Origin: Escherichia coli
Lineage (GTDB): Bacteria; Pseudomonadota; Gammaproteobacteria; Enterobacterales; Enterobacteriaceae
Reading direction: 5' to 3' (one strand)
Length of the DNA stretch: 64,000 bases
Assembly (NCBI RefSeq): GCF_030013595.1
Contig: NZ_CP122768.1
The translations under genes were made by a program, and so were the position numbers. Each line of letters begins with the position of its first letter. Position 1 is the first letter of the stretch. The notes under the pieces are model-generated. The model was not told the DNA's origin. It made no database searches and saw only the letters and a program-made list of their open reading frames with translations. Shown one piece after another: positions 5,994 to 64,000 of the stretch.

Positions 5994-6199
5994 ATATGCA
6001 ATAATTAATTGCACTGCCCCGCCAGCTATAATCGCGGGGCTTCGTTTTTCAGGGATAACAAAACCCGAAACTTCTTCCATCTGCCAGCAACAATGCCTCT
6101 TCCTCTATAGTGTTCTCCGGATCTACAGCATCCTGAAGTAGCGCGATGTACTCATTGGCTATCTGCATCAGAAAGTTAAAAACAATGTTTTTAACCTAT

Positions 6200-6228
6200 A
6201 AAAATGGCGCTTTATTTGCGCCATTTTT
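6200..6228. terminator. Bidirectional rho-independent terminator between convergent ykgJ and yagU
   Basis: Perfect inverted repeat aaaaatggcgc / gcgccattttt with 6 nt loop, flanked by A/T runs on both strands. Confidence 0.55.
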
Positions 6229-6241
6229 ATCATTCAATGCA

Positions 6242-6856
6242 TTATCTGTTTGAGCCTAAAGGGATCTCAGGGTCTGGCTCATGAGTAATTCTGTTTCGTA
6301 AATCTCTGCGAATAATTTCAATGGACCAGAACCAGACTAAATGTCCAAAAATTTCAGAAACATTCTCATACCAAGGGAGATCAAACAGAGGTGGCGTCAG
6401 TCCCATGAGAGGGAATGAAATCATATGAACAAAAAGTTGGGCTAAAGCACCTGCCAGTAAGCCCTGCCAGAGTTTAATTTTTGGAAATACTTCAGCGACC
6501 ACACAATAACCGACAGCAAACACTATCGAAAAGATAATGTGCGTAACACCAACCCAGTTAAAGACATGCCCGGCAAAGGTATAAACAGCCGCATTGGGAT
6601 CTGTCAGCCCCAACCAGTCTCGAAGAAAAATATACGGAGGATTGAGAAAATTACGGGAGCAATCAATTTGCCCAGCAGCCCTGATTAATGATTCCGGGCC
6701 ACACGCTGCATTAAACATATCCACCGGGCTACGTGGCGGCAATGGAACTTCAGCCCCCCACTTCACAAATGCGGAAACAACGCCAGCAATCAGCCCAATG
6801 AATGCAGCAAGACCATAACGTCTGCGGTTCGGTGGAGTTTGTTCAAATATATTCAT
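6242..6856 (-). CDS. yagU: YagU inner-membrane protein (DUF1440), 204 aa
   Basis: 204 aa hydrophobic ORF; conserved neighbour of paoA in E. coli. Confidence 0.85.
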
Positions 6857-39423: not shown

Positions 39424-40874
39424 TCAGAGGTCAAAGTTAGGTGCGACACACAACGTTTTTCCCTCAATAACCGGTACAACTCTGTTTTGTTCATACAGTA
39501 AATCCAGTAACCAGTTGATTTTATCCTTTTTCCGGAAACGGTTCGGACCACGCTGTAAAATGTCATTTTTTTTCATACAGAGGATCCCCTTCTCAATGCA
39601 ATAGCTTTTTATCCAGTTGAAAAGTTCAAGCTCCTCTGGAATGAGTCGCACAGGTACGGTCAGGGCAGGGTTGTCAAAAGTTAACGGATTAGACAACCGC
39701 ACATACTCATTACCGTACCATATTGCTAATTCTCTCGCCATTTCTGCAATGTAAGGGGAAATCTCCCCCTCCTCACCGCTCGAATGGTAAATAAGTCCTG
39801 CCAGTCTTGCCATATACTCTGCATTTTTAGCAGCATATTCCCGGCAATGTCTTAAAGGCCCCAATCCCCCCAGCTTCGATTCCACATCATTGTAATAATC
39901 CGTCCAGATTCTGGCAGCCTGAGGAGAAAAGTGAAGGCAACGTCGTTCACCACTCATCGCCAGACTTTCATCAATAAGCTCATTGATCCTCTGTTCAAAC
40001 AAATCCTGATACTGTGATGAATAATTATCTCCGGTTATTATCCTTGTCCCCTGCGTTGATGTTGGTTGACACATCAAAAACCTTGCATGATGTCCTGACG
40101 TTTTCACAAGTTCTTTTTTTCGCGTACAAAAACCTTTGTGGTAAACATCAGGCTGAATCATCGCCGACATCGTCAGTCTTGGCTCCTTCAAATTAATTCC
40201 GGGAGATGATTTCCTGTCGATGAAAAGAGAACCTCCATCCCACAAAGTGTTAATAATTCCCAGTTTACTCATGGCCCGGCTGTCAAAAATTCCCCCCCTT
40301 CACTGGATACAAGAGCAAAAGAACGATTGCTATCGGAGTAATATTTTAACATTCCCTCTATCGTTGTCTCATTAAAAATTGTTCGACGTATCTGCGGCGG
40401 AACAGGAGACTTATTCAGATGCGTTTCAAGCTCTGATTCTGTTGCCTTGTAATCTTTACCGGCACGAATCTCTTTATGAAATTTTGATTCCAGCGCTTTT
40501 TGTTTTTGCTCCCATATTTCCTTTTCTGTGCTGTAATTCTCAACCAGTTTCGCGTATTCTTCCGCCAGGGCTTCATCCCTGAGATAAAATGCTTTCATAA
40601 ACACTTTATCCACGGTCGTTTTCCTTTCACCAGAATCAGCCAGAATCAGAGAGTAAAGATTAACAGGCCCACGTAAATTTCCAGGTCTGCACACGTCAAT
40701 CTGATTCTGACAGGCAATTGAGATCGCTGTTAATGCGGATGTCGCCACCATAGCCAAAGGTGCCTGTGTATTTTTTTGAGTTTCAATTATTGCATTTCTC
40801 ACCAGCGGTGGTAGTGCATATATCGGATAAGGATTTTCTGGTGCAAGTAAGCACATAAAAGCCTCTCTTTTCAT
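39424..40874 (-). pseudogene. YfjI-like DUF3987 protein gene split by a frameshift in a C7/G7 homopolymer
   Basis: Two ORFs (40874-40269, 201 aa; 40272-39424, 282 aa) in adjacent frames; both frames are open across the C7 run at 40292-40298 and one extra C would fuse them into about 483 aa. Confidence 0.6.
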
Positions 40875-41104
40875 TAATGGGTTAGTAAAGTAGCAGCAAC
40901 TCCCGCTATAATAGCGAAATAGCTGCTGTTCAGACCTAATGTTCTGAGAAATACAGAATATCTGTAGATCTGATGTTTAATAAACCGATAAGGTTAATTC
41001 AGTTCATACTGTGTTATTTACCACGAAATATCATTCATGTTTCTCATTCTTAACACCTCCTAAAATTATTTCACTAACACCTTCCCCCCGGTCTTTTTCC
41101 TTTC

Positions 41105-41332
41105 TCAGGAATCAGCCAGAACCATAGTGTAAATATTAACGGGCCCACGTAAATTTCCGGGGTTGCACACGTCAATCTGATTCTGACAGGCAATTGATAT
41201 CGCTGTTAATAATGATGTTGTAGTCATAGCCAGAGATGCTTTTTCATTGTGTTGAGTTTCAATTATTGCATTTCCAGTCATTGATGGTTGCGCATATACT
41301 GGATACGGAGTATCCGGTTTGATGTAAGACAT
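41105..41332 (-). pseudogene. Duplicated 5' fragment of the DUF3987 gene
   Basis: 75 aa ORF with an LAM..TS.LTAISIACQNQIDVC.PGNLRGPVN.Y core shared with the N-terminus of the ORF at 40874; flanking DNA 41100-41410 repeats 40620-40930 at roughly 80 percent identity. Confidence 0.55.
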
Positions 41333-41437
41333 AAATATTTCCTTTTTTCGTAATAACTTTCGGTTATAGCAGCTATTTCCGCTACAATAGCAACAATAGC
41401 TGCTATACAGACTGGATATACTGAAAATACAGACAGT

Positions 41438-41686
41438 TCATCTGGTCTGTATCCAGCAGAGAAGGTCACTTAACAACCATCCGCAAGATTTCTTTCCGAT
41501 AGACTTACGTGGTGGAAATGTTCCCTCCCGTTCAAGTTTCCACGCTTGTGTACGAGAAATTGACGTGATCTCATATCGTTCCTTTTCACGTACCAGTCTG
41601 TCGCATTCAATCCCATAAGCTTTCAAAATGACCAGACGCTGTTCATCTGTTAATGGAAGCCACATACTACCCTCCTGATATATCAA
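41438..41686 (-). CDS. alpA: AlpA-family phage/island transcriptional regulator (HTH)
   Basis: C-terminal YEITSISRTQAWKLEREGTFPPRKSIGKKSCGWLLSDLLCWI matches the AlpA HTH pattern; true start may be an internal Met. Confidence 0.7.
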   Translation of the reverse strand: MIYQEGSMWLPLTDEQRLVILKAYGIECDRLVREKERYEITSISRTQAWKLEREGTFPPRKSIGKKSCGWLLSDLLCWIQTR

Positions 41687-42355
41687 TACTTTTTATTTCC
41701 GGCATGAGCATGAAATGACTAAGTTTCCCGGATAAACAATGAGTGAAAGTCACTATCATTCATCCAGTCAACACCTTACAAATAAAATGTAATACTATGA
41801 TTTTTATAGGTCAAAATACTGAATTGAAATGTTAAAATGGCTTTTAATAGAAAAAATAAAGACATATAGAACCAAATAAAAACAAGCCGCGACCAATAAA
41901 AACAAAAATTAATATTAAAAATCCATTATGACGATTTTTGTTGACTAAAATTAGGTTGGGATATATAAATAAATCCATGTAAAATTCAAACAAAGCATGG
42001 AGGAGTCGCAGGAAGGTGAAATATTTCCATCTAATTTGTGATAATCATCACAAAAATAAGCTACAACAAGCGGAGGAAAAGACAATCTGTTGCTGAACAG
42101 ACAGAAGCAGGCTACGAATGATCGGAAAATGAAGCAAATACGCTTATACAGAAGACGCAGAGGTAACTGACGGAGACAATCACAATCAGGAGAAAATTAT
42201 CGTAAATAATGTATAAAATCTCAGGATATAAACAAATGTACACAAGCTATCCACGTAATCAGCGGCTGGCTCAGGATTAACGTTTCATTTCAGTGGACAA
42301 CATCGATTCTGTCTGACAGCGGACCAATATGTAGCAAGCAGAAACTTCTGACATC

Positions 42356-43954
42356 ATGGTAACTCGGACAATGCAACAAAAGTATCAGTATGATCGTGTT
42401 TTATCCGGCGAACTCCACCCATTCCCTGGCATATACGAGGCGGTTTCCGAACAAATCCTTTTGCTCATTTTTAAAGCACGTCAACTATATCAGGATCCAG
42501 AATATCGCCCCTGGTTTGAAGAACAGCACAGAGTACTCTCTGCATTACGTGCCAATACAGAGCTCCTGAGAATCTTTAGAGAACAAAGAAGCGCTGAAGA
42601 ACCAAAGCTTACTATTGAAGAGTCTACCTCCCCCCAACCCACTCCTTCTGCTCTTACAGATGCGCTTAATGTGATGTGCCATTTATACAATGGTTTTGAT
42701 GAAGGAAATATCAGTCTGAAAACTTGGGGGGCGATGCAAGAGGTACAGACAACATCAACCTTTATCAGCCCAGGACCGAGAACCTGGAAAACACCTGAAC
42801 TGGCAAAGTTTGTAGGAGATGATTTATTTAATATTCTGACTGAATGTAAGGCCTGGAGTTCACCAATTCCAGCAGAAACCCGACAGGGGTATTGCCATCA
42901 GGATCTGTCTGTTGCACACTCCTGCACCTCAGAGTTACTGGCACACCTGAATCAATATCATGAAATTGATGAATCAGCAATACTTGCCAGAGTTATTGGT
43001 ATAACAGTTAACGGATTCTACAAGAAAAATAATACAGACCTTCCAGAATGGCTATCCCCCTTTAAAGAGGAACATAAAATATTCAGAGATTGTCCGGAGC
43101 AAAATACCGGGGATGTAATCAGACGGAAAGAACAACTGTTGAAAACAGGACGTACAGAATTCGTGAATAATTTGTGTCGGGTCGCCAACTGGTATGAAAT
43201 TGAGTCAATATACGATGAATACGTCCGTCTTTATGCCAATGAAATCATTGACTGGTTCAACAAAACCATGAAGTATTTTAAACCAACAGATTTTATCCGA
43301 TATACATGGAAATTCGCAACAGTTACTCCGGATAAAGATACAGAAACCGGGCATACAACTGCATGGGAAAAGGATTATTGCCAGATAACCATACAACGTG
43401 ATGAACTTCTGAGGTTGATTCACACCAATACCCTTCAGGATGCAGTAATTTATCTTTGTCATTGTCTACAGAAGGAATACAAGAAATCATCCCAAAATGA
43501 GATAGAGTTCCCAGGAATAAAACCTCCGACATCAGAGAGTAAAATTAATATAACAAATAATATTAAATTTCATTCTCTCCTGGAGCTCAGTAAAGATAAT
43601 GAGAAGCGTCTGGAAACATTTCAAAAATGGTATGAAAAAAATAAAGTTTTGTTAGAAAGTCATAAACAAAAACGAACAGAGAAGATTGACGTTGCCGTAC
43701 GACTTGTAGGGCTGAAAGCCTATGATCTGCATGAAGGGATTCCGGATAGTCCAAAACGAAAAGTTAAAGATGGCATAAATGAAGACATCAAAGCCGATAC
43801 CAGTTTACGCCTGTCAAAGACAAATATAAGTGATACGTCGCTAAACCGTTATCGCCGCACTGTTAAGGAGATTATCAATAACGAAATTGACGCATTCCTG
43901 TTGGAACAGAAGAAAAAAATAAAAGATTTCCCTACAGTGAAGATAGAGATGTGA
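42356..43954 (+). CDS. Hypothetical protein, 532 aa, no recognisable domain
   Basis: Long uninterrupted ORF in an AT-rich segment; no Walker, nuclease or HTH motif found by eye; start codon uncertain, no clear SD. Confidence 0.55.
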   Translation: MVTRTMQQKYQYDRVLSGELHPFPGIYEAVSEQILLLIFKARQLYQDPEYRPWFEEQHRVLSALRANTELLRIFREQRSAEEPKLTIEESTSPQPTPSALTDALNVMCHLYNGFDEGNISLKTWGAMQEVQTTSTFISPGPRTWKTPELAKFVGDDLFNILTECKAWSSPIPAETRQGYCHQDLSVAHSCTSELLAHLNQYHEIDESAILARVIGITVNGFYKKNNTDLPEWLSPFKEEHKIFRDCPEQNTGDVIRRKEQLLKTGRTEFVNNLCRVANWYEIESIYDEYVRLYANEIIDWFNKTMKYFKPTDFIRYTWKFATVTPDKDTETGHTTAWEKDYCQITIQRDELLRLIHTNTLQDAVIYLCHCLQKEYKKSSQNEIEFPGIKPPTSESKINITNNIKFHSLLELSKDNEKRLETFQKWYEKNKVLLESHKQKRTEKIDVAVRLVGLKAYDLHEGIPDSPKRKVKDGINEDIKADTSLRLSKTNISDTSLNRYRRTVKEIINNEIDAFLLEQKKKIKDFPTVKIEM

Positions 43955-44078
43955 TTCGACCTTTATGGGGAAAATGCCTGACCGGGCAGTAGATCACAGA
44001 TGGGATAACATCCCGGTTATCCCCTGTTTGTTCTGCTTCAGGTTGCCAGAGCTCCAGGAACACGAGGCAATCGGCAAA

Positions 44079-44675
44079 TTATGCGGCTTTTCCATTAACA
44101 GATTCGGCCACAAGAACAACACCGTGTTTGTTTCGATCAGGATGTTCACTCCAGATTTCTGATTCAGGAATACTTTCCCCATCATAGCAGATCCGATCAC
44201 CATCAAACGGATAATACCGTGCGGAATCTGTATCTAAGATAAACACCTTAAGATTCGTTGAACGACGCGCTATATGCTGCCAGAGGGCTTTACCTCCTTC
44301 ATATTGCTCGTTATCACTTAATAGTATAACGCCTGCTTTTGTGGCTATTGTTTCATAAACAAACGTAGCAAGGCTAACATCACGTACAGCACCATCGACA
44401 ACAATCCCTTCAATCTGAGCAACGTCCTGTTCTTCCCAGAATTTCCGGACAAACACCCCTTCAAGCTGTGAACGACGCTGAAGCTCCAGAGTGGCAACAA
44501 CCTTATGGCGAATATCACCATCAATAACAGAAGGTGCAGCTTCGATTACCGCAGCGAACGGAGTCTTTGGATCCCAGATGATCTGGTAAAGCACACCCTG
44601 AATAGTTACTCCATCCAGTATCGAAAAACGACGAGCTACAGTAGCAGGGGAGTAAGACATTGGAATGACAGCCAT
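44079..44675 (-). CDS. Hypothetical protein, 198 aa
   Basis: ORF adjacent to thrW inside the island; no recognised motif. Confidence 0.5.
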   Translation of the reverse strand: MAVIPMSYSPATVARRFSILDGVTIQGVLYQIIWDPKTPFAAVIEAAPSVIDGDIRHKVVATLELQRRSQLEGVFVRKFWEEQDVAQIEGIVVDGAVRDVSLATFVYETIATKAGVILLSDNEQYEGGKALWQHIARRSTNLKVFILDTDSARYYPFDGDRICYDGESIPESEIWSEHPDRNKHGVVLVAESVNGKAA

Positions 44676-44975
44676 TTTATGGCCTAAAATTTGAAAACAT
44701 CAGTATCAATACTGACCTCATCAGTCTGAGCATATATTGATAAAGTTTTTATGTTTACACTCAATAAATACCTTACCAAACAACTAATAGCGATGTCTAC
44801 ATTGCCATTCGACATGCTTACAATTTTTGTCAACAAGAAAGTGAATTTATATCAACGGTAAGAAGTAAACACGAGGACACCAAAACCAAATGTACACACT
44901 TTTGTGCTTTGTGTCCCCTGTGTGTACCCAAATGACAAACTGCAAGAAAATCTAGGCACACACTTATCTAACTTA

Positions 44976-45031
44976 TTGATTTAAATGGTGCCGATAATAG
45001 GAGTCGAACCTACGACCTTCGCATTACGAAT
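44976..45031 (-). repeat. Island-junction direct repeat overlapping the 3' part of thrW
   Basis: 56 bp match to 16635-16690 with 2 mismatches. Confidence 0.85.
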
Positions 45032-51439: not shown

Positions 51440-52897
51440 GTGTCTGAACTGTCTCAATTATCTCCACAGCCGCTGTGGGATATTTTTGCCAAAATCTGTT
51501 CTATTCCTCACCCGTCCTATCATGAAGAGCAACTCGCTGAATACATTGTTGGTTGGGCAAAAGAGAAAGGTTTCCATGTCGAACGCGATCAGGTAGGTAA
51601 TATCCTGATTCGTAAACCTGCTACCGCAGGTATGGAAAATCGTAAACCGGTCGTCTTACAGGCCCACCTCGATATGGTGCCGCAGAAAAATAACGACACC
51701 GTGCATGACTTCACGAAAGATCCTATCCAGCCTTATATTGATGGTGAATGGGTTAAAGCGCGCGGCACCACGCTGGGTGCGGATAACGGCATTGGTATGG
51801 CCTCTGCACTGGCGGTTCTGGCTGACGAAAACGTGGTTCACGGCCCGCTGGAAGTGCTGCTGACCATGACCGAAGAAGCCGGTATGGACGGTGCGTTCGG
51901 CTTACAGAGCAACTGGTTGCAGGCTGATATTCTGATTAACACCGACTCCGAAGAAGAAGGTGAAATCTACATGGGTTGCGCGGGGGGTATCGACTTCACC
52001 TCCAACCTGCATTTAGATCGTGAAGCAGTTCCAGCTGGTTTTGAAACCTTCAAGTTAACCTTAAAAGGTCTGAAAGGCGGTCACTCCGGCGGTGAAATCC
52101 ACGTTGGCCTGGGTAATGCCAACAAACTGCTGGTGCGCTTCCTGGCGGGTCATGCAGAAGAACTGGACCTGCGCCTTATCGATTTCAACGGCGGCACACT
52201 GCGTAACGCCATCCCGCGTGAAGCCTTTGCGACCATTGCTGTCGCAGCTGATAAAGTCGACGCACTGAAATCTCTGGTGAATACCTATCAGGAGATCCTG
52301 AAAAACGAGCTGGCAGAGAAAGAGAAAAATCTGGCCTTGTTGCTGGACTCTGTTGCGAACGATAAAGCTGCCCTGATTGCGAAATCTCGCGATACCTTTA
52401 TTCGTCTGCTGAACGCCACCCCGAACGGTGTGATCCGCAACTCCGACGTGGCAAAAGGTGTGGTCGAAACCTCCCTGAACGTCGGTGTGGTGACCATGAC
52501 TGACAATAACGTAGAAATTCACTGCCTGATCCGTTCTCTGATCGACAGCGGTAAAGACTACGTGGTGAGCATGCTGGATTCGCTGGGTAAACTGGCTGGC
52601 GCGAAAACCGAAGCGAAAGGCGCATATCCTGGCTGGAAGCCGGACGCTAATTCTCCGGTGATGCATCTGGTACGTGAAACTTATCAGCGTCTGTTCAACA
52701 AGACGCCGAACATCCAGATTATCCACGCGGGCCTGGAATGTGGTCTGTTCAAAAAACCGTATCCGGAAATGGACATGGTTTCTATCGGGCCAACAATCAC
52801 CGGTCCACACTCTCCGGATGAGCAAGTTCATATCGAAAGCGTTGGTCATTACTGGACACTGCTGACTGAACTGCTGAAAGAAATTCCGACGAAGTAA
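51440..52897 (+). CDS. pepD: Cytosol non-specific dipeptidase PepD (aminoacyl-histidine dipeptidase)
   Basis: 485 aa with GTG start; M20-family metal-binding motifs. Confidence 0.9.
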   Translation: MSELSQLSPQPLWDIFAKICSIPHPSYHEEQLAEYIVGWAKEKGFHVERDQVGNILIRKPATAGMENRKPVVLQAHLDMVPQKNNDTVHDFTKDPIQPYIDGEWVKARGTTLGADNGIGMASALAVLADENVVHGPLEVLLTMTEEAGMDGAFGLQSNWLQADILINTDSEEEGEIYMGCAGGIDFTSNLHLDREAVPAGFETFKLTLKGLKGGHSGGEIHVGLGNANKLLVRFLAGHAEELDLRLIDFNGGTLRNAIPREAFATIAVAADKVDALKSLVNTYQEILKNELAEKEKNLALLLDSVANDKAALIAKSRDTFIRLLNATPNGVIRNSDVAKGVVETSLNVGVVTMTDNNVEIHCLIRSLIDSGKDYVVSMLDSLGKLAGAKTEAKGAYPGWKPDANSPVMHLVRETYQRLFNKTPNIQIIHAGLECGLFKKPYPEMDMVSIGPTITGPHSPDEQVHIESVGHYWTLLTELLKEIPTK

Positions 52898-52953
52898 TTA
52901 TTTGATTTGCTGCCGGATGGCGTTTAATCGTCTTCCGGCAGTTTCATCCTTCA

Positions 52954-53342
52954 TTATCCTTCGATAAAAGCCATCCCTGTAAATGTCCGTCTCGGGTTGC
53001 CACGTTCAATCTGGTGATGGAACATTCGCCGCTGCGATTTCAGCACCGCGCTATTTTCCTGTTGCTGTTGTTCCAGCTTCCAGGCAATCAGCAATCGCGC
53101 CAGCAGCTTGTTAGCATGCCCAGAAACCAGTTTTTGCGCCCATGATGAGGCCGATACGGACTCGGACAAATCCACTGAATAGTGCCGCACCAACTTTCGC
53201 TTAATGCCCATGCGTTATCGCCATCCAGAGAAATCAGCGCCGAACGCAGCGTGTCAGAGTAGCGGCCCGTTTCTGTTTCCAGCACCGTTACCGCGACGTC
53301 TTGCCGGGTAAAAACGACCAACAGAGAATAACGCTGCGCCAA
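52954..53342 (-). pseudogene. prfH: prfH-type peptide chain release factor homolog, fragmented
   Basis: Two overlapping partial ORFs carry recalled PrfH segments ([27 protein letters not shown] and [21 protein letters not shown]...[12 protein letters not shown]); middle part lost or frameshifted. Confidence 0.7.
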
Positions 53343-53508
53343 TCGGGTAGCCGCGTCCGGGGTGTAAATCTGGCATCCCTACTACGCGCTGCATGTTGGG
53401 TAAATTTGCCGTGGTGTGTAATTGTTGAATCGCTAAACTCTCGATCCGCAGGTCATCAGATGCGATGGTAAATACCGCATCGGATAAGGGACGAATATAT
53501 TTGCCCAT
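53254..53508 (-). pseudogene. ykfJ: ykfJ, N-terminal remnant of an RtcB-like RNA ligase gene
   Basis: About 66 aa of RtcB-like N-terminus (MGKYIRPLSDAVFTIASDDL...[16 protein letters not shown]) then unrelated sequence. Confidence 0.6.
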
Positions 53509-53752
53509 GTATCATTCCATTTATACTCGTCATACTTCAAGTTGCATGTACTGCGACTCGAATTATTTAGAGTATATAAATATAAAAATCAGGAAATGGC
53601 AGACGAATCCAGGGCAAGAAAAAAGAATTAATCCTGGAAAGGTCTGCAAAGAGTCATTGATAAAGGATTTGTCATGATTTACCTCCTTGCAGTTTGTGGA
53701 ATAAGAAAACGCGCACATACCAGGCGGGTGTTATTTTCATTGCAAGCTGGAT

Positions 53753-54205
53753 TTAATGTTGCGGTTTATATCGCATAGAAAAATTAGTAAACCACGCTCC
53801 CCTGCATTCAACGCGCTGCTGCTTAACTGTCTGAAAACCATAACGTTCAAAAAAGGGTTTTGCGGTTATGCTGGCGTCCACCGTAAGTTCGGATTCAGAC
53901 TTAATCAAAGGTTTTAACAAAGCGCTGGCAACCCCACGGCGGGTGTATTCAGGGTCAACAAATAACATATCGATATAATGTTCAATGCGGGAAATAAAAC
54001 CAACCGGTTGTGCATTAATGATCGCAACCCACACTTGTGATTTCGCGAGTTTCTCCTTCCAGCGAGATTCGTCAATCTGCGCCCAGGCGGCAATTTGTTG
54101 TGGTGAATAATGCTGACTGGCGGTCATCGTAACCGCTCTAATGAAAATAGCGCATAGTTGCTGAAAATCGCCAGGCTGATAATCTCTTATTTGTATGTTA
54201 TTCAT
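53753..54205 (-). CDS. yafP: GNAT-family acetyltransferase YafP
   Basis: 150 aa; recalled match, conserved dinB-yafN-yafO-yafP order. Confidence 0.85.
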   Translation of the reverse strand: MNNIQIRDYQPGDFQQLCAIFIRAVTMTASQHYSPQQIAAWAQIDESRWKEKLAKSQVWVAIINAQPVGFISRIEHYIDMLFVDPEYTRRGVASALLKPLIKSESELTVDASITAKPFFERYGFQTVKQQRVECRGAWFTNFSMRYKPQH

Positions 54206-54214
54206 AATATAAAT

Positions 54215-54613
54215 TCAAAAACGCATGCGAAACGCTTCTGCCATTTTTCCAATTTTATGCATTTGGTTGTTATCTCGAGCCAGTTTATGAGGTTCAGGCT
54301 TCAGAATGGCAATGAGCAACCATGCTTGCTCATCAAACGCACCCTGACAATATACCAAATGCGCTTCGTCATTCGTTCTGCTGAATTGGCGCAACTGTGG
54401 CGGAAATGGATTATTCACATTTGCCAGATGAATATGAGCAACTCGCTCAAATTTGATTAATGGCCAGGTAAACGAGTCGTCGTAGAGTGCATCGCGACCA
54501 AATATATCTGGCAAAATACCGTCACGCTTATAGGAAATAAAATCCGCCGTTAACGCATCAAGTTCCTCTGCTGTAAGTTGCAGGCGAATAAGTTTTGTTT
54601 TGAATACCCGCAT
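54215..54613 (-). CDS. yafO: YafO ribosome-dependent mRNA interferase toxin
   Basis: 132 aa; recalled match and context. Confidence 0.85.
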   Translation of the reverse strand: MRVFKTKLIRLQLTAEELDALTADFISYKRDGILPDIFGRDALYDDSFTWPLIKFERVAHIHLANVNNPFPPQLRQFSRTNDEAHLVYCQGAFDEQAWLLIAILKPEPHKLARDNNQMHKIGKMAEAFRMRF

Positions 54614-54615
54614 CC

Positions 54616-54909
54616 TTATTCCTTAAAGTCATTGAAATCATCATCCGTCATATCATTAAGATATTGTTCAGCGCGGCGTGTAATTTCCTCTAATCTTGCG
54701 GCACTCGGACGGAAGCGCGCCTTCACCAGTTTTTTCTCCTCTTGTTCTGCAAGCATGTCCATTAACGCTTCGAATGCGCTGGCACTTAAGAGATATCCTG
54801 CGGGGCGATTATTAGAAAGAACCGCAACCGGTTGATCAATAAAGTATTTTGCTGGATTTTTACGTAACTCAGTGATATTGACCGATTTTTCAGCGAGAAT
54901 TCGATGCAT
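54616..54909 (-). CDS. yafN: YafN antitoxin (Phd/YefM-like)
   Basis: 97 aa; recalled match and context. Confidence 0.85.
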   Translation of the reverse strand: MHRILAEKSVNITELRKNPAKYFIDQPVAVLSNNRPAGYLLSASAFEALMDMLAEQEEKKLVKARFRPSAARLEEITRRAEQYLNDMTDDDFNDFKE

Positions 54910-54960: not shown

Positions 54961-56016
54961 TCATAATCCCAGCACCAGTTGTCTTTCCATTTGCGGGTCA
55001 AGCAACGTCACATGCAGCCCCACCAGCCGCACACCGCGCCCGCCGCGACGTTCATCCCAGGTTTTACGCGCGGTGGCAATTAAGTCAGCTTTATTCAGCC
55101 GCGGCCAGACGTGCTCCTGAGTGGTTTGCTGAAAATCGTCGAACTTTAATTTCACCCCCTGGCGAGCAATCAGTAAATCAGGTTTCACCTTTGCCAGACG
55201 GCGTTCAAGTTCCGGATACAGCCGCTCGATAATCGCTTCACATTCAGACCAGTGATGAATATCTTCCGCCATCGTGCGTTCCACGCCGACGGATTTTCGT
55301 AACCGTTCGCTGTTAACGTCGCGCTCGTCAATCCCCTGACTACGCTCCCACAAAATGCGGCCAAATTTGCCAAAACGTTTGAGCAGAGTCACCAGATCAC
55401 ACTTTTGCACATCACCGCAGGTCCGCAGCCCCATCGCTTCCAGTTTTGCCGCCGAGACTTTGCCGACGCCGGGAATTTTTGCCAGCGGTAAGGTTTGCAG
55501 AAATGCCGGAACTTCTGCCGGCGTAATCACAAACTGGCCGTTGGGTTTATTCATGTCGGAGGCGATTTTAGCGAGAAACTTTACTGGTGCCACGCCCGCA
55601 GACGCCGTCAGTTGCAGCTCGTTGAAGATTGTCTGGCGGATTTCCTGGGCGATGAGGGTCGCAGAACCGTGGCAATGGACGCTATCAGTAACATCGAGAT
55701 AGGCTTCATCCAGTGACAACGGTTCAATACGCGAGGTGTAGCGCGAGAAGATTTCACGGATATGATTTGAGGCTTCTTTGTAGGCGTCAAAGCGCCCCGG
55801 AAGCAAGGTGAGATGTGGGCATAATTTGAGCGCCATCCCAGTAGGCATAGCGCTACGTACGCCAAATTTACGCGCGGGATAATTGGCGGTGCTGATCACC
55901 CCCCGACGTTCGCGGCTGCCGCCAATAGCAATAGGGATATCGCGCAGGGCGGGATTGTCGCGCATCTCCACTGCGGCGAAAAAGCAGTCCATATCCACAT
56001 GAATGATTTTACGCAT
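54961..56016 (-). CDS. dinB: DNA polymerase IV (translesion synthesis)
   Basis: 351 aa; N-terminal [22 protein letters not shown] typical of Y-family polymerases. Confidence 0.95.
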
Positions 56017-56086
56017 TGCTCACCTCTCAACACTGGTAAAGTATACAGTGATTTCAGGGTTTGAGAAATGCGTAAAGATTCAGCAT

Positions 56087-57010
56087 CTAGCGCGTTCGCT
56101 GCGAAAGCACCTGCTGCTTATCCAGCTTTTGCACCAGCGGCTGCACCACTTTATCCCCATGCTGACCAAAGTATTGATACAGCGTATCGGACGCACTTTT
56201 GGTCAGCACCATAATCTCAATGCGTCGGTTGCCCGCGCTTTGCGGATTTTTCGCGTCCAGCAGCATCTGGTCCGCCATCGCGCTTACCTGCATCACTTTA
56301 TCTTCCGGCATTCCGGCCTCTTCCAGCACCCGACGGGCCGAAAGCGCGCGATCGCCCGAAAGGTTCCAGTTGTTGTAGATATTGTTTTTGTAGGCCATCG
56401 CATCGGTATGCCCGGTAATAATAATTTTGTTATCGAGCGAGTCGAACACTGGCGCGAGCTCCACCAGCAAAGTTTTAAAGAACGGCATAATCTGCGCGCT
56501 GCCGCGTTCAAACATATTGCGGTTCTGGTCATCTTTAATCAGCACGCGTAATCCCTGCGGGACAATCTCCATCTCCAGATTCGCTTCCATATGTGCATCA
56601 CGGGCAATGGTGTTGATACTGGTTGCCAACTCGCCAAGCTCGGTGGCGGATTTCTTCTTCAGCAGCGCCGGTTTCTCATTCACATCACGCGCTTTTTTCT
56701 CCGTCTCTTCCGGCACCGCTACGGTGGCAGGTTTTGGCGGATGAGACGGGCTGATTTTATTTAACGGCGACAGCCCACCACCGTTAAAAATCGACTGCCC
56801 GTGCAGCGCGGCGATAATGCTTTCACGCTCGGATTTACTGACGCTGTTGACAATCCACAGCGTCATAAACAGCGCCATCATTGCCAAAGTAAAGTCGGCG
56901 AACGTCACCTTCCGCGCCCCGCCGTGGTGCCCGGCATGATTCTTTTTGATCTGCCGCCGGACGATGGTGGTTTTTGCCCCACGCTCGCGGCGGTTGCCCG
57001 TCTTTCTCAT
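56087..57010 (-). CDS. lafU: Lateral flagellar motor protein LafU (MotB-like)
   Basis: TM segment FADFTLAMMALFMTLWIV and C-terminal OmpA-like region; apparently intact here; ORF track start 57043. Confidence 0.8.
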   Translation of the reverse strand: MRKTGNRRERGAKTTIVRRQIKKNHAGHHGGARKVTFADFTLAMMALFMTLWIVNSVSKSERESIIAALHGQSIFNGGGLSPLNKISPSHPPKPATVAVPEETEKKARDVNEKPALLKKKSATELGELATSINTIARDAHMEANLEMEIVPQGLRVLIKDDQNRNMFERGSAQIMPFFKTLLVELAPVFDSLDNKIIITGHTDAMAYKNNIYNNWNLSGDRALSARRVLEEAGMPEDKVMQVSAMADQMLLDAKNPQSAGNRRIEIMVLTKSASDTLYQYFGQHGDKVVQPLVQKLDKQQVLSQRTR

Positions 57011-57012
57011 GC

Positions 57013-57876
57013 TTATTCTTGCTCCAGCATCGCATTCACCCACGCGTCGAGGTTGGCGAAGGTCGGTTTAGATGCCAGATGCAGCAGCTTACGCCCGGCG
57101 TCCACCGCCAGCAGGGTCGGTTTGCCGCCTGCCTGCGCCACCAGCACGGTGCGCACGCATTCCAGCAAAGAATGTTCCGCCCGTGCCTGTTGTTCCATGG
57201 CGTTGGCAAGCGGGTCCATCAGGCAGTAGCAGATAAAGACGCCTAAAAACGTCCCCACCAGAGCCGCCGCCACTTTCAGGCCAATCAGGGCGATAGATCC
57301 ATCAATCGACTGCATGGTGATGATGATGCCCAGCACCGCCGCGCAAATACCAAATCCCGGCATCGCTTCGGCAGTACGTTGCAGCGAGCGCGACGGCGTT
57401 AACAGGGACTCTTCCGCGGTGTCCAGTTCCTGATCGAGAATGCCTTCCAGTTCGTGGGCGTCGATTTTGCCCATCGCCATCAGGCGAAAGTTATCGGCAA
57501 TAAAGGTCACCAGCCGCTTCTGGGTTAATACCAACGGGTATTTCTGGAAAACGGTGCTATCTTCCGGTTGCTCAATATGCTGATCCAGCATGCGCAGGCC
57601 GCCGTTTTGTACCATTTCAAGCAACTCATACAGGCACATTAATAGCTGACGCTGAAACTCCGGCCCGAGCTGTTTTTTACTGATCACGCCTTTAATTTGA
57701 TGGGCAATCTCTTTCAGCACATGTTTCGGGTTACCAATAATCATCGCCCCAAAACCGGCACCCAAAATAATGATCATCTCCGCCGGTTGCCAGATAGCCA
57801 CTAATTGCCCGCCCGCTTCAAAATAACCGCCAAATACGCAGCCGAGCACCACCAGTAAACCTAATATTTTTTGCAT
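57013..57876 (-). CDS. lafT: Lateral flagellar motor protein LafT (MotA-like)
   Basis: 287 aa four-TM protein, N-terminus MotA-like. Confidence 0.8.
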   Translation of the reverse strand: MQKILGLLVVLGCVFGGYFEAGGQLVAIWQPAEMIIILGAGFGAMIIGNPKHVLKEIAHQIKGVISKKQLGPEFQRQLLMCLYELLEMVQNGGLRMLDQHIEQPEDSTVFQKYPLVLTQKRLVTFIADNFRLMAMGKIDAHELEGILDQELDTAEESLLTPSRSLQRTAEAMPGFGICAAVLGIIITMQSIDGSIALIGLKVAAALVGTFLGVFICYCLMDPLANAMEQQARAEHSLLECVRTVLVAQAGGKPTLLAVDAGRKLLHLASKPTFANLDAWVNAMLEQE

Positions 57877-57888
57877 GATTTCTTCACT

Positions 57889-58605
57889 TTAATTCGGATA
57901 GACAAAATCACGAATTTTCTGCGCGATCTGTTTATTCAGTTGACAAATTCGGGCCTCGGTTAGCCCTAATACCAGCGCAATTTCTTTGAGATTCATCTCA
58001 TGCTGGTAATACATGGAGAGGATCAGTTGCTCTTTTTCGCTTAATTGTGAAAGCGCCTGTTGCAACATTTGCTGGGTGACAAACTGATCTTCCAGTTCCC
58101 GGCCAGCAAGCGGAATGCCAGGCCCTTCGCCGTTCAGCAGTTCGTCAAGGCTGGCGAGCGTTTCCGCCCCTTCCAGTTGCTGATATTCGAGATAATCTTC
58201 ATGCGAGATCCCTTCCACGGCCAGTTCTGGCCACTCCGGTTCGTGCCCCAGTTTTTTACGCGTTTCGCGAATCAGGTCTTTCATCTGATGATATTTCTGT
58301 CGCAGCTGGCGCGGTCGCCAGTCGAGAGCGCGCAGCTCATCAAGGATCGCGCCGCGAATACGGTGCACGGCATAGCCGGCAAAACCTTCGTCCGGCAGCC
58401 CGTAGCGGCGAATGGCGTTAAGCAGCCCCATTAACGCCGTTTGTTCCATATCCTGACGGTCAATAATGCAATTACACTGCGGGGCAAGTTGCCGCACCAC
58501 TTTACGCACCAGTGGTAAATAGGCCTGCAAGTAGTGGCTCTCCTGCTGCGGGGTTAATACCGGCGCGGCAGCAAATTCTTCTGACTCGAATACGTCCTGT
58601 AGCAT
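57889..58605 (-). CDS. lafS: Lateral flagellar sigma-28-like factor LafS
   Basis: 238 aa sigma-70-family protein with region 4 HTH (LKEIALVLGLTEARICQL). Confidence 0.75.
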   Translation of the reverse strand: MLQDVFESEEFAAAPVLTPQQESHYLQAYLPLVRKVVRQLAPQCNCIIDRQDMEQTALMGLLNAIRRYGLPDEGFAGYAVHRIRGAILDELRALDWRPRQLRQKYHQMKDLIRETRKKLGHEPEWPELAVEGISHEDYLEYQQLEGAETLASLDELLNGEGPGIPLAGRELEDQFVTQQMLQQALSQLSEKEQLILSMYYQHEMNLKEIALVLGLTEARICQLNKQIAQKIRDFVYPN

Positions 58606-58624
58606 GTTTATATCCGCCTGGTGA

Positions 58625-59092
58625 TTACTGGAAGACCACTTTTTTCACCAGCAAATCCTTATACGGTGCGCTCATTTTGCGACGTTGAAGATCTTTCTTT
58701 AACGCATCCGAAATCAGTTTGCGGATGGCAGATATTTTCATGCCGCGCAAATCTTCAAATTTCATTTCCGTCAGGCATTCAACCGCAATACTTTGATACA
58801 GCGGCTCCTGATGTTTTATTTTTTCCGCTTCTTTGTCACTGGCAACCACCATCACTAATTCCGCCGACAAATAATGGTCCGCGCCGTTGTTGTCATGCAG
58901 CGTGACAATGGTTTCCGGCAACGTCACAAACACGCTTTTGCTTTCATCCAGGGTTTCCACCGTTTCCGTCTGCGCGGCGGCAGTCGGTTTTCCTTTTCCG
59001 GCATAATGATGCCAGACACCCCATCCAGCTCCGACCCCCACCACCAACGCCAGAACGGCGCTGACCACGCCCGCCACCACGATTTTCTTCAT
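58625..59092 (-). CDS. lafF: FliL-like lateral flagellar protein LafF
   Basis: 155 aa, single N-terminal TM helix; position in laf operon. Confidence 0.6.
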   Translation of the reverse strand: MKKIVVAGVVSAVLALVVGVGAGWGVWHHYAGKGKPTAAAQTETVETLDESKSVFVTLPETIVTLHDNNGADHYLSAELVMVVASDKEAEKIKHQEPLYQSIAVECLTEMKFEDLRGMKISAIRKLISDALKKDLQRRKMSAPYKDLLVKKVVFQ

Positions 59093-59099
59093 ATTGCCT

Positions 59100-60161
59100 T
59101 TACACTTTGATCAAAACGGATTCGTTCTGTTGAAATTGAGGCGCATCATCAAGCTGTAAGGCGGCACTCACCTCTTCCTGCTGATGGCCCGACTGTTGTT
59201 GTTGCTGCGACTGCCCTTCGGAGGAAACCTGTACGTTCACCTCCATAAAATTTTGCGCCGTCAGATGCTGGCGGAGATCGTCGCTAAACTGTTGTAACGC
59301 GCGGCAAACTTCACTTTGGTTCGCGCCGATATGCACCATCAGTTTGCCGTTATCGAGTTGTACGGCGATCTCAAGCTTGCCAAGCGACGGTGGATCGAGA
59401 CGGATGGTGGAGATCTGCTGTTGTTTGTTGAGCTGAAAGTGGATCTGATCTTTCAAAAGCGTCGTCAGTTTTTCGCCCAGTTCGTCCATCGAAAGCGTGG
59501 CTGGTTTGGCGACAATCTCCTGATGTTCGCTGACCAGATCCGGCGTCTTAACCTGCAACACCGCACGCGCAATAACCGGTTCGCTGTCCGGCACTTTTTC
59601 CGTTTTACGCTCGACCTGCGGGCGCGCGTTCACACGGGTTAGTTCAGGTTTCGGGCGAGCTGGCTGTGTTGAGACGCGCGGCTGCGTCGGCGCAATGGCA
59701 TGTAAATATTCACTGGCGTAAGTCGCCAGTCTGGCCTGCTGTTCGGGTTTCGCCTGCGGCAACTGACTGATCAGTTCCTGCAACTGCGGCGGCAACGGCG
59801 TGAGTTCCTGCTGCTGCGTCGGGCGTTGCGGCGCGTTTTGCACCACCGCTTTCGTCAATTGCTGGATAACCGGCGATGTTGCGACGTTTCGCGGCTGCGG
59901 CGTGTCCTGATGCGGCGCGGCAGGTTGCGGAAGTAACAGCGCCATTAGCGCCTGCATCGCCACCAGATCGTTCTCCTGCGGGCGCGTCGCCTGTTGCTGA
60001 CTGGTTTTAGCGCTATGAACGCGCTCCGCCACCGCCGCGACCGCCATTTTCGGCAGGGTAAACGCGGGCGCGTTTTCACCGCTCACCGGCGGTAAAATAT
60101 CCGCCTTCAACGAAGCGGTTTCCGCAAGCGTTCCGAGCGTGGCAAGCAATGCCGGATTCAT
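59100..60161 (-). CDS. lafE: FliK-like hook-length control protein LafE
   Basis: 353 aa, Pro/Gln-rich central region, Gln-rich C-terminal domain. Confidence 0.6.
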   Translation of the reverse strand: MNPALLATLGTLAETASLKADILPPVSGENAPAFTLPKMAVAAVAERVHSAKTSQQQATRPQENDLVAMQALMALLLPQPAAPHQDTPQPRNVATSPVIQQLTKAVVQNAPQRPTQQQELTPLPPQLQELISQLPQAKPEQQARLATYASEYLHAIAPTQPRVSTQPARPKPELTRVNARPQVERKTEKVPDSEPVIARAVLQVKTPDLVSEHQEIVAKPATLSMDELGEKLTTLLKDQIHFQLNKQQQISTIRLDPPSLGKLEIAVQLDNGKLMVHIGANQSEVCRALQQFSDDLRQHLTAQNFMEVNVQVSSEGQSQQQQQSGHQQEEVSAALQLDDAPQFQQNESVLIKV

Positions 60162-60469
60162 GACTTCTCCGAAAGTAAATTAACAATTGAGTAGGCCAGT
60201 ACGCCTTCCTGATGCCGCTGATGCTGTTCCATACGCGCTTTCAACACTTCTGCGCGCTGCTCGCGCCGTTTAATCAGGGCGTTAAACGCGTCATACAGTC
60301 GCGCTTTCACTGCATCCAACTGCGCCGCATCGGTTTCCGCCGCCGCGTAATCGTGAAACTGGCGTATCAACTGCTGATGCAGTGCCGGAAGGCGTCGCCA
60401 GCGTTGCTTGTCGAGGGCTTCATTCATCGCCTCGACCAGTGCGAAAAGTTGCCTGCGTTGTTTTTCCAT
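60158..60469 (-). CDS. lafD: FliT-like flagellar chaperone LafD
   Basis: 103 aa helical protein between fliS-like and fliK-like genes. Confidence 0.5.
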   Translation of the reverse strand: MEKQRRQLFALVEAMNEALDKQRWRRLPALHQQLIRQFHDYAAAETDAAQLDAVKARLYDAFNALIKRREQRAEVLKARMEQHQRHQEGVLAYSIVNLLSEKS

Positions 60470-60473
60470 CGTC

Positions 60474-60866
60474 TTAACCCAGCTTGCCCGAAAGCCCTTC
60501 CCAGCCTTCGCGCAGGTTGCTTAAGATCAGCATCACTTCATCGATTTTCTCTGCCGACAGTTCGCCGCTGGCCTCATACAATCGGTAAACGCAGTGGTCA
60601 TAGAGTCGCGAAAGGTTGACCACCAGCTCGCCGCCAGTTTCAAACTCCAGCGAACTGGTGAGCGCATTGAGAATGTCGATGCATTTATTGATGCTCTGGG
60701 CTTTCTTCTCGAAACGCCGCCCTTCAATATGGCTTTTGGCGCGTTCCAGCTCGTCCATCAGGCCAGAAAACAGCACCAGCACCAGTTCCAGAGGCGATGC
60801 CGCCGCAGTACGCGCCGCGAGATCGATCTCTTTATATTGCGAATAGCCGTCCTGTACTTGGTACAT
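60474..60866 (-). CDS. lafC: FliS-like flagellin chaperone LafC
   Basis: 130 aa; size and order after the fliD-like gene. Confidence 0.7.
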   Translation of the reverse strand: MYQVQDGYSQYKEIDLAARTAAASPLELVLVLFSGLMDELERAKSHIEGRRFEKKAQSINKCIDILNALTSSLEFETGGELVVNLSRLYDHCVYRLYEASGELSAEKIDEVMLILSNLREGWEGLSGKLG

Positions 60867-60888
60867 CTTTAGGGATATTCCTTCTGAG

Positions 60889-62205
60889 TTACGCGAATGC
60901 CGCCATGCTGGCTTTCATGGTGTACACCTCGACCAGCGTGTTGGTGTACTCCTCGAGATAACGGTCGTAGTTGGCGTTATAGGTATCAGTAAGCTGATCG
61001 CCTTCGTCCTGAATTTTGCTCATCTGATCGTCAATGTTCTGCTGGCGCAGGGTGATGATGCCGTTGCTGGAGTCCGTGTAGGTGTTAATCAGGTCGTCCA
61101 TCTGCGCTACCATGCTGTTGTCGCCAACGAAAATAGAGGTCAGACCGTCAGGATTTTTCGCCATTTCGTCGTTGAACTGGTCGGAGTCAATCTGTAAGTG
61201 GCCGTGAGAATCGAGGGTGATGCCATAGTCAACAATCGACACGCCGTTGTAGCTGGCATGGGCGATGTCATCGAGCTGGTTCGCCAGTGAACTGAGTCCG
61301 GCGTCGCCTGCAAATACCCCGGCGCTGGTACTGTCATCACCGTGAGTGGTTAGCGAATCAACCGTATCGATCAGGGTGTTATAGGCATCGACAAAGGTCT
61401 GCACTTTCTCCTGGCTGGCGCTGGAATCTTCGCTAATGTTAAAGGTAGTGAGGTCGCTGTCAGAATCGCTGACTTCGGTGAAAGTCATGGTGACGCCGGG
61501 GATCACATCATCAAACGTATTGCTGCTGTTGGTGATCTCAGGCCCCGTGGCGCTGCCAAGATGAATAATCGCGTCCTGAGCGGAGGAAACATCCGTGGCA
61601 ACGGGCGCGCTGGTGCTATCGTTGCTGCCGTCATGCCCCGTTACGCTCACCGAAAATGCGCTCTGCGCCCCGGTGCTATCGGAGGTGAGCATAATCGTGG
61701 TGGTGCCGTCGGTTTTTACCAGTGCCGCCGACACGCCCGGATTGTCATCAGAGTCGTTAATCGCATTCACCAGCTCGCTGGCGTCGATAAAACCGTCGCC
61801 GTCACCGTTCTGATCTGCCGCCGACAGATCAATATCCATGGTGCTGTCGCCCATCGTCAGTTCAAAAGTGCCGGTGGCGGAAAAGGTGTCGTCGCCCATA
61901 CTGAACGTGGTTTGCTGCCCCTGCGCCAGTTGCTCAACGAAAAACGAGTAGCTTCCCGCCTGTGCCTGCGAGTTAGCAGAAACGGTCGCCGAGTCATTAT
62001 TGCTGGTGGCGGCAAAAGTCACCGGGCCGTCGGTATCGCTGTTCAGCGCGTCAACGGCGCTCTGAAAATCGCTTAACGCCGAGCTGAGCGAGTCCAGGCC
62101 GCTGCTTTCAGCGTCCAGCTCGGTCTGCTTCTCCTGCAAATTTGCCGCCTGGGTGGCGACATCCGCATAAGCAATTTCTTGCGCAATGGTTCTTGGGTTA
62201 ATCAT
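60889..62205 (-). CDS. lafB: FliD-like filament cap protein LafB
   Basis: 438 aa with N- and C-terminal coiled-coil regions; downstream of flagellin. Confidence 0.75.
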   Translation of the reverse strand: MINPRTIAQEIAYADVATQAANLQEKQTELDAESSGLDSLSSALSDFQSAVDALNSDTDGPVTFAATSNNDSATVSANSQAQAGSYSFFVEQLAQGQQTTFSMGDDTFSATGTFELTMGDSTMDIDLSAADQNGDGDGFIDASELVNAINDSDDNPGVSAALVKTDGTTTIMLTSDSTGAQSAFSVSVTGHDGSNDSTSAPVATDVSSAQDAIIHLGSATGPEITNSSNTFDDVIPGVTMTFTEVSDSDSDLTTFNISEDSSASQEKVQTFVDAYNTLIDTVDSLTTHGDDSTSAGVFAGDAGLSSLANQLDDIAHASYNGVSIVDYGITLDSHGHLQIDSDQFNDEMAKNPDGLTSIFVGDNSMVAQMDDLINTYTDSSNGIITLRQQNIDDQMSKIQDEGDQLTDTYNANYDRYLEEYTNTLVEVYTMKASMAAFA

Positions 62206-62379
62206 TGATGACTCCGGGTAACGATGTCAGGTTAATGGCAAAAGGCGTGCCAATATTTTTTATGTGAATAATCAATAGATTGAAAAACAGGCGGAAATGG
62301 TGTTTCCGGTCTGGCGGAAAAAAGCCTGCCGCTGAAAGCACAACACCGCCTGCAGGCGGTGTTGAGACTGATGACAAAC

Positions 62380-62495
<116 letters not shown>

Positions 62496-62500
<5 letters not shown>

Positions 62501-63410
62501 GCAGCAGGCTGGAAACCATGCTGGACATGCTGTTGGACTGTTTCAGCATGGTGATGCCGGTCTGCATCAGCACCTGCTGTTTGGTCATGTTGGACGCTTC
62601 CGTCGCGTAGTCGGTATCCATGATGTTACCGATAGCAACTTCGGTGTTGTCCTGCATGCTGGTCAGGTTATTAGCCGTGTCGTTCAGACGGTTGATAGAC
62701 GCACCCAGTTTGGACTGGATCTGAGACACGTCATCCATCGCGGTAGAGATGCTGGTGATCATCTGGTTAGCCGAGCCAGACGCAGTCAGCTCAGTACCGC
62801 CAGAAACGCCTGCGGTGCCCGTGGTGTCAGCCTGATCCGCACTAAAGGAGTTGCTGATAGCAGAAAGATCAGTCACCAGGGTATTCAGCTGGCTTGAAAT
62901 ATTCACGGTCATGGTGTCGGAAGATTCCGCGCCCACCTGGAAAGTTACCGCGCTCTGGAACAGACCGTCAGTACCGGTGTTGCTGGTGCCGGAAACACCG
63001 AACAGGTTGGTGCCGCCGTAAGTGGTGTTTTGCAGCATGTCAGACATCTGCTGGCCCAGTTCGTCGTATTCGTCCTGCATCGCCTGCAGGTCGTCGTCGC
63101 TGTAGGTGCCGTTCGCTGCCTGAGTTGACAGGTCTTTCATACGACCCAGCACGTCAGACATTTCGTCGAACATGCTGTCAGCGGTTTGCAGCATCGCGGT
63201 GGCATCATTGATGTTGCTCAGCGCAACACCCATACCGCTGGACTGTGCTGTCAGACGGTTAGCAATTTGTTTGCCTGCGGCGTCATCGGCAGAAGAGTTA
63301 ATCCGGTTACCCGTTGCCAGGCGTTCCATAGATGTAGACAGAGAAGAGCTGCTTTTGCTGATTGCATTAACGGCGGCCATTGAGGCGTTATTGGTGTTAA
63401 TAGATAACAT
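62496..63410 (-). CDS. lafA: Lateral flagellin LafA
   Basis: 304 aa from MLSINTNNASMAAVNAISK with conserved flagellin N- and C-terminal helices (LQ end) and AGGAG SD; ORF track start 63476. Confidence 0.85.
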
Positions 63411-63894
63411 GATACTGCTCCTTGGGATTAATCGTTTTCGTTTCGATACCCTGTAAAAACGACACCTCGGGAGCAAACTTAAAACCGCTATGAAAAAAAT
63501 TCGCTACGTATTATCCGATGCCACTTTTAGCTAAAAAAAGCAGAGTTTAAATTCAGATAAAAAGATTATTAGCAATATCTGCCACATGGCCAGGTATCAA
63601 AATATGTCTTAATCAAACGCTTGATATAGTTAAGATTGTCATCAATTATCGCGTTTTGTTCTCAATGTACTGATGCCAAAATTTACATTGCGTTGCAAAT
63701 AGCACACATTTGGCTATTGTACCTGTCCTGTCATTTCGTTACATTTCCACGCCATATAGTGATTAAGAATAATCCTATTACCGTAAAATATTAATTATCA
63801 CGCAGAAAAATCATCTTCTCAGGGACGTATAAGACTGTGCTTTATGCAAAGCACTATCAGGAAACATTTATCCCTTGCTAAGGTAAACTCAACT

Positions 63895-64000
63895 ATGAGT
63901 ATTATTATCAACAACTGGCGGATGGACCCGTCGCTTAATGCCTTAATACATTGCGAAACGGGTGAAACACGTCGTCTCGGCGAATACCATTTTATTTTGC
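63895..64000 (+). CDS. Possible start of a winged-helix (ToxR/CadC-like) regulator, perhaps lafZ; continues past window end
   Basis: ATG at 63895 opens a frame reading MSIIINNWRMDPSLNALIHCETGETRRLGEYHFIL, reminiscent of OmpR/ToxR-type N-termini; only 35 codons visible. Confidence 0.3.
   Translation, partial: MSIIINNWRMDPSLNALIHCETGETRRLGEYHFIL

Follow-up and report, generated by a model that had tools for sequence, protein, structure and literature searches.

The 555 bases at positions 52954-53508 of the window (the whole 64,000-nucleotide stretch of Escherichia coli DNA analyzed here) are almost certainly a non-functional remnant of the rtcB2–prfH ribosome-repair operon, lying at the normal site of that operon and made by two sequential deletions at microhomologies. 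The remnant is encoded on the minus strand and runs from the first base of the rtcB2 (ykfJ) start codon, an ATG at 53508, to the last base of the prfH stop codon at 52954. It consists of three operon fragments lying between pepD and yafP. The same two neighbours flank the intact operon of E. coli O111:H- 11128 and the ykfJ/prfH pair of K-12. A first-pass annotation made from the letters of the sequence had called this interval a decayed RtcB-like (ykfJ)/PrfH module, and both the identity and the coordinates proved to be exact when checked by BLASTP, NCBIfam profiles and the ends of the open reading frames (ORFs). The features of the region are as follows.

51440-52897, plus strand: pepD.
52954-53508, minus strand: the rtcB2–prfH remnant.
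52954-53115, minus strand: 3' fragment of prfH (prfH nt 454-615, codons ~151/152-204 and the stop), in a frame different from that of the middle fragment.
52954-53211, minus strand: mechanically called ORF of 85 codons; the last ~54 are the true PrfH C-terminus and the first ~30 are the middle fragment read out of frame.
53088-53342, minus strand: mechanically called ORF of 84 codons with a TTG start, with the prfH middle fragment inside it.
53116-53119, no strand: junction of the 169-bp deletion, which removed prfH nt 281-449; 4-bp ATGC microhomology.
53120-53301, minus strand: middle fragment of prfH (prfH nt 99-280, codons ~33-94; with the microhomologies included, nt 92-284, codons ~31-94).
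53254-53508, minus strand: the ykfJ ORF, 84 codons beginning MGKYIRPLSD; ~66-69 RtcB2 codons followed by ~15-18 codons of prfH DNA out of frame.
53302-53308, no strand: junction of the 1,027-bp deletion; 7-bp imperfect microhomology, attributable to the sequence on one side or the other.
53309-53508, minus strand: 5' fragment of rtcB2 (ykfJ), nt 1-200 of the 1,140-nt gene, codons 1-66 of 379.
53753-54205, minus strand: yafP, beyond which lie yafO, yafN and dinB.

The intact operon of O111 11128 is 1,751 bp in length and codes for an RNA ligase of 379 aa and a release-factor homologue of 204 aa, the genes of which are joined by a 4-nt stop/start overlap. In a blastn comparison with this operon, remnant nt 1-207 correspond to operon nt 1-207 (96.1% identity), nt 201-393 to operon nt 1228-1420 (97.9% identity) and nt 390-555 to operon nt 1586-1751 (97.0% identity). 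The alignment with an intact operon that the first-pass annotation had proposed thus confirms that the decay is real and resolves it into two internal gaps of 1,027 and 169 bp. The window was compared with five alleles (HCP5S3_I2, K-12 MG1655, O111:H- 11128, a BL21-type allele and ETEC1731), and the same two gaps relative to the intact operon emerge, in exact agreement, from pairwise blastn and from a MAFFT alignment of all six sequences. What is kept amounts to 32% of the operon sequence and includes no catalytic parts. Over the retained 555 bp, the window is orthologous in sequence and site to the intact RtcB2–PrfH modules of ATCC 25922, CFT073 and O111 11128 (96-98% nucleotide identity). 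At the protein level, the three fragments show 90-96% identity to the intact proteins (BLASTP E-values: 5e-37 to 3e-48). The two prfH fragments, located at the orthologous site, are 97-98% identical to O111 prfH in nucleotide sequence, and so are classified as a pseudogene descended from it. A tblastn search of the 64-kb window recovered no further copies of rtcB2 or prfH.

The rtcB2 fragment encodes the N-terminus of the ligase. The 84-aa ykfJ ORF is identical to intact RtcB2 residues 1-69 at 66 of 69 positions (96%, E-value: 2e-46). Residues 1-66 are unambiguously derived from RtcB2, in agreement with the first-pass estimate of about 66 aa of an RtcB-like N-terminus, and residues 67-69 fall within the junction microhomology. 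The ORF scores below the curated cut-off of each full-length profile: 98.8 bits against NF007153, the equivalog for PrfH-coupled RtcB (cut-off 407; profile positions 1-69 of 379), 92.8 bits against TIGR03073 (cut-off 271.8) and 23.4 bits against Pfam RtcB (PF01139; cut-off 27; profile positions 1-35 of 426). The metal-binding and nucleotidyl-histidine region of RtcB proteins lies in the C-terminal two thirds of the protein. As codons 1-66/69 of 379 are retained (17% of RtcB2), the catalytic core is missing from the window, including the HGAGR-type segment found at approximately residues 292-296 of O111 RtcB2. At position 53512, immediately upstream of the ORF, the window and HCP5S3_I2 have a T where the remaining compared alleles have a C. 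The T turns the TGG of the upstream ykfJ start annotated in K-12 (MEWYMGK) into TGA, so that only the ATG at 53508 can open the window ORF.

The first junction, at 53302-53308, joins rtcB2 nt ~200 to prfH nt ~92. Its 1,027-column gap is common to the window, K-12, the BL21-type allele and ETEC1731 in the MAFFT alignment, and the overlapping blastn segments and the junction sequence place it identically. Both the junction sequence and the gap are the same in the window and in K-12. In HCP5S3_I2, which is 99.9% identical to the window, the boundary between the prfH and RtcB pseudogenes drawn by PGAP is at this same position. The first-pass annotation had placed an old deletion junction near 53320; the deletion exists, a few bases from there, and a second junction at 53116-53119 had been missed. 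An early date is plausible because the deletion is widespread, being carried by K-12, BL21-type strains and O157:H7 and present in about half of the complete genomes searched (see below). The 1,027-bp deletion corresponds to the loss of ~1,000 nt that Baranov et al. 2006 (PMC1586002) reported in the K-12 strains MG1655 and W3110 and in the O157:H7 strains Sakai and EDL933.

PrfH is represented by two pieces in different frames. The ORF at 53088-53342 matches intact PrfH residues 26-95 (BLASTP E-value: 3e-48) and contains the middle fragment, which is part of the rRNA-recognition domain. It scores 93.4 bits against TIGR03072 (release_prfH; profile positions 31-95 of 200) and stops 9 codons past the 169-bp junction, reading NWFLG up to the junction and MLTSCWRDC before the stop codon. 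The ORF at 52954-53211 matches residues 149-204 (E-value: 5e-37) and scores 56.6 bits against the same profile (positions 143-200 of 200). Neither reaches the whole-protein cut-off of 166.65 bits, compared to 325.7 bits for intact O111 PrfH. No Pfam matches were found in either of the two prfH ORFs. Similarity to RF1, RF2 and ArfB, which is kept by intact PrfH and by the K-12 remnant, is no longer detectable in the window fragments. Residues 1-30 and the ATG were lost to the 1,027-bp deletion, leaving residues ~31-94 and 151-204; the rRNA-recognition domain (residues 2-98 and 180-204) is therefore incomplete and has no start codon of its own. The GGQ motif, residues 120-122 of intact PrfH, lies inside the 169-bp gap. 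The GGQ domain comprises residues 108-161, and substitution of its glutamine (Q122N/E) abolishes function (Tian et al. 2022, PMC9304027). Loss of codons ~95-150 takes both the motif and 43 of the 54 residues of this domain. The first-pass statement that two overlapping frames between them carry the recognisable PrfH segments is thus not supported: each holds a PrfH fragment, but the most recognisable segment of the protein, the GGQ peptidyl-hydrolase domain, is gone. Position 53105, in the 3' fragment, is A in the window and C in all five compared alleles, changing R155 to L in the dead prfH frame. A 76-bp query spanning this position had no 100% match among 5,426 complete E. coli genomes.

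The second junction explains the split of prfH. O111 and K-12 both read GTTAGCATGC followed directly by TGACTACG at one end of the missing segment and CGCCCAATGC followed directly by CCAGAAAC at the other, whereas the window reads GTTAGCATGC followed directly by CCAGAAAC. In the six-sequence alignment, this 169-column gap is found only in the window, HCP5S3_I2 and ETEC1731, while K-12 and the BL21-type allele are without it. Because 169 is not a multiple of 3, the prfH frame is shifted and the C-terminal 54 codons stand in another frame. The two-frame state of prfH comes from this deletion and not from a point frameshift. The decay had initially been described as the same kind as in K-12; this holds for the 1,027-bp deletion, which is the same event, but the frame break is due to the additional 169-bp deletion that K-12 does not have. 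In the literature consulted on prfH with rtcB or pseudogenes, nothing resembles a description of the 169-bp deletion.

Both junctions were counted in 5,426 complete E. coli genomes using 76-bp junction-spanning queries (11-base words, E ≤ 1e-18, half-matches excluded). The 1,027-bp junction is found in 2,689 genomes (~50%) and the 169-bp junction in 659 (~12%), equivalent to about a quarter of the 1,027-bp carriers; these proportions reflect which genomes have been sequenced and not natural frequencies. A 322-bp query spanning both junctions (70-bp flanks, E ≤ 1e-30) is fully covered in 659 genomes. Short flanks and a strict E-value were used as nearby pieces are otherwise joined. The same 76-bp queries run with megablast undercount, giving 390 genomes for the 169-bp junction and 1,931 for the 1,027-bp junction, since nearby SNPs leave no exact 28-base word. 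The intact 1,751-bp operon is at least 80% covered in one place in 2,675 genomes (~49%), and none of 20 such matches sampled is split. The equality of the two totals of 659, together with the lack of split matches in the intact sample, indicates that the 169-bp deletion is nested within the larger one and second in time. The 169-bp carriers thus appear to be a subset of the 1,027-bp carriers, judging from equal totals and not from a genome-by-genome comparison. A megablast search with 52850-53650 against the same genomes revealed several length classes at the locus. Approximately 60 genomes have neither an intact operon nor the K-12 deletion. Strain MEW has only the last ~396 nt of prfH, EC571 has the rtcB side only and TUM13867 has almost nothing, which suggests further independent decay events at this locus.

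The proposed model for the decay of the operon is as follows. The 1,027-bp deletion would have eliminated most of the RNA ligase (82%), together with the translationally coupled stop/start overlap and PrfH codons 1-30. Later, within a subset of this lineage, the 169-bp deletion would have removed codons ~95-150 with the GGQ motif. Judging from the junction microhomologies, both deletions probably occurred between short direct repeats. This anatomy fits ordinary stepwise gene decay, with the pair already dead after the first deletion.

The 169-bp deletion sits on two haplotypes, the window type and the ETEC1731 type, with 19 differences between them at 853 shared sites. The window haplotype has a short ERIC element and the ETEC1731 haplotype a long one. 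ETEC1731 is otherwise nearer to the BL21-type allele (8 differences). One variant near the 169-bp junction, 53187 G, is common to ETEC1731 and the window, and the rtcB2 fragment of ETEC1731 is O111-like at 53308, 53347 and 53362. With two haplotypes, a single origin of the deletion requires later recombination, the alternative being two separate deletion events at one and the same 4-bp microhomology. The mosaic pattern of ETEC1731 suggests that the deletion arose once and then spread by recombination, rather than recurring. It is conceivable, albeit unlikely, that the second deletion was selected, if the K-12-type 166-aa fragment, which bears the GGQ motif without the N-terminal recognition elements, were mildly harmful through unspecific peptide release or aggregation. 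Such selection would explain the presence of the 169-bp junction on two divergent haplotypes and in a quarter of the 1,027-bp carriers.

A still less probable reading is that the remnant has been co-opted, with the 84-aa ykfJ ORF serving as a small protein or the transcript as a regulatory RNA, and that this explains its persistence in about half of E. coli. The deleted allele is indeed very common, and K-12 and the window both have an open ykfJ ORF with a shared out-of-frame tail despite differences between their remnants at 18 of 853 sites. However, the RtcB2 codons show three non-synonymous and four synonymous differences from O111 (W21R and F60L included), which gives no sign of purifying selection, albeit with numbers that are too small for a test. 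For all retained codons the counts against O111, also too few to test for relaxed selection, are ten synonymous and six non-synonymous. Within the remnant, no Rfam family was identified besides a chance-level snoRNA match (E-value: 0.28). A scan of 52850-53800 found no sigma-70-like promoter at threshold, a result that is uninformative about transcription as 1.8 would be expected by chance. Knockouts of the K-12 remnant are reported to have no colicin E3 phenotype (PMC9223846), and continued erosion by a second deletion is the expectation for neutral DNA.

We consider it highly improbable that prfH is made functional by programmed ribosomal frameshifting, as is its paralogue prfB. The homologue RF2, encoded by prfB, is well established to use a programmed +1 frameshift (PMC1586002), but intact prfH genes are single uninterrupted frames of 204 codons and have no prfB-type arrangement. 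In the window, the change of frame coincides exactly with the deletion that takes the GGQ motif. With the start codon and first 30 codons also gone, even a perfectly frameshifted product would still miss residues 1-30 and 95-150, and a product without GGQ cannot hydrolyse peptidyl-tRNA, given that Q122 mutants are inactive (PMC9304027). There is likewise next to no chance that the split prfH is a sequencing or assembly error such as a homopolymer indel in a gene that is really K-12-like, which the first-pass annotation had named as the outcome that would overturn it: two overlapping frames do resemble a frameshift on the raw sequence, but the alignment reveals a genuine deletion, with 169 bp cleanly missing at a 4-bp microhomology, and not an indel of 1-2 bp, and the identical junction occurs in 659 independently assembled complete genomes.

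Loss of both genes by stepwise deletion has a predictable consequence for ribosome repair. PrfH enters the A site of ribosomes that have been cut between A1493 and G1494 of the 16S rRNA by colicin E3 or CdiA-CT and frees the peptide by means of its GGQ domain, after which RtcB2 re-ligates the rRNA (PMC9304027, PMC9223846). Neither the RtcB2 ligase nor the PrfH peptidyl-tRNA hydrolase can be made from the window allele. K-12 BW25113 is reported to be sensitive to colicin E3, with no change upon knockout of the remnant and with protection restored by a plasmid-borne intact operon of ATCC 25922 (PMC9223846). With 17% of RtcB2 left and no GGQ, the same null phenotype as in K-12 is predicted for the window allele: the strain would lack the protection that the module gives against 16S cleavage by colicin E3 and CdiA-CT. 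In interpreting sensitivity to either toxin, carriers of this allele are best regarded as rtcB2/prfH-null. Both junctions are convenient lineage markers; otherwise, the allele matters mainly for correct annotation.

A short ERIC-like repeat is located at 53520-53586, between ykfJ and yafP. K-12 and ETEC1731 have 72 more bases at this repeat (reverse-complement positions 2573-2644 of the K-12 locus), flanked by the direct repeats TGCGACT/TGCAACT, and the standard ERIC1R and ERIC2 primers each align to this additional sequence with a single mismatch. The long and the short ERIC element are each found both with and without the 169-bp deletion, which implies either a recurrent ERIC indel or recombination at the locus. 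The repeat, which is outside the remnant, also has a match to the Rfam family isrH at 26.8 bits (below the gathering score of 45) and carries a terminator-like hairpin at 53540-53558. Between yafP and dinB, the window has the yafN-yafO toxin-antitoxin pair (54215-54909), as do K-12 and HCP5S3_I2. O111 11128 is without this pair, and its yafP overlaps dinB directly (O111 locus 5101-6605).

Of 5,426 genomes, only 17 cover at least 80% of window positions 40000-64000 in one place. The closest genome that matches all of this interval is strain C1 (97.6% identity overall). Beyond dinB (~56000-64000), the C1 counterpart is annotated with the lateral-flagella (Flag-2) genes lafU, motA, a FliA-type sigma factor gene, fliL, fliK, fliS, fliD and lafA; K-12 has only remnants of this cluster. 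At the other end (~40000-45000), correspondence with C1 places a variable island beside tRNA-Thr and upstream of proA. It encodes a YfjI family protein, a DUF3987 fragment, an HTH regulator and hypothetical proteins. The island probably represents an integration hotspot and may be part of the reason why so few genomes match the whole 24 kb.

The rtcB2–prfH module, its function and its inactivation in K-12 are already published, and RefSeq already flags the window allele. HCP5S3_I2 carries the same doubly deleted allele, differing from the window at 1 base of 801 (position 53105), and PGAP annotates it there as "prfH, frameshifted; incomplete; missing N-terminus" and "RtcB family, incomplete". 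In ETEC1731, the two deletions are accompanied by a different set of SNPs and by the long ERIC form, and the prfH part is annotated by PGAP as "hypothetical protein, frameshifted". What is added here is allele-level detail: the anatomy of the two junctions, their frequencies in 5,426 genomes and a decay that has gone further than in K-12. The K-12 pseudogenes ykfJ (b0235) and prfH (b0236) occupy the same locus and share with the window the 1,027-bp junction and the out-of-frame ykfJ tail; the ERIC element upstream of ykfJ is 72 bp longer in K-12. Unlike the window, however, K-12 retains in its prfH remnant one continuous frame of 166 codons that includes GGQ and scores 269.8 bits against release_prfH, above the 166.65-bit cut-off.
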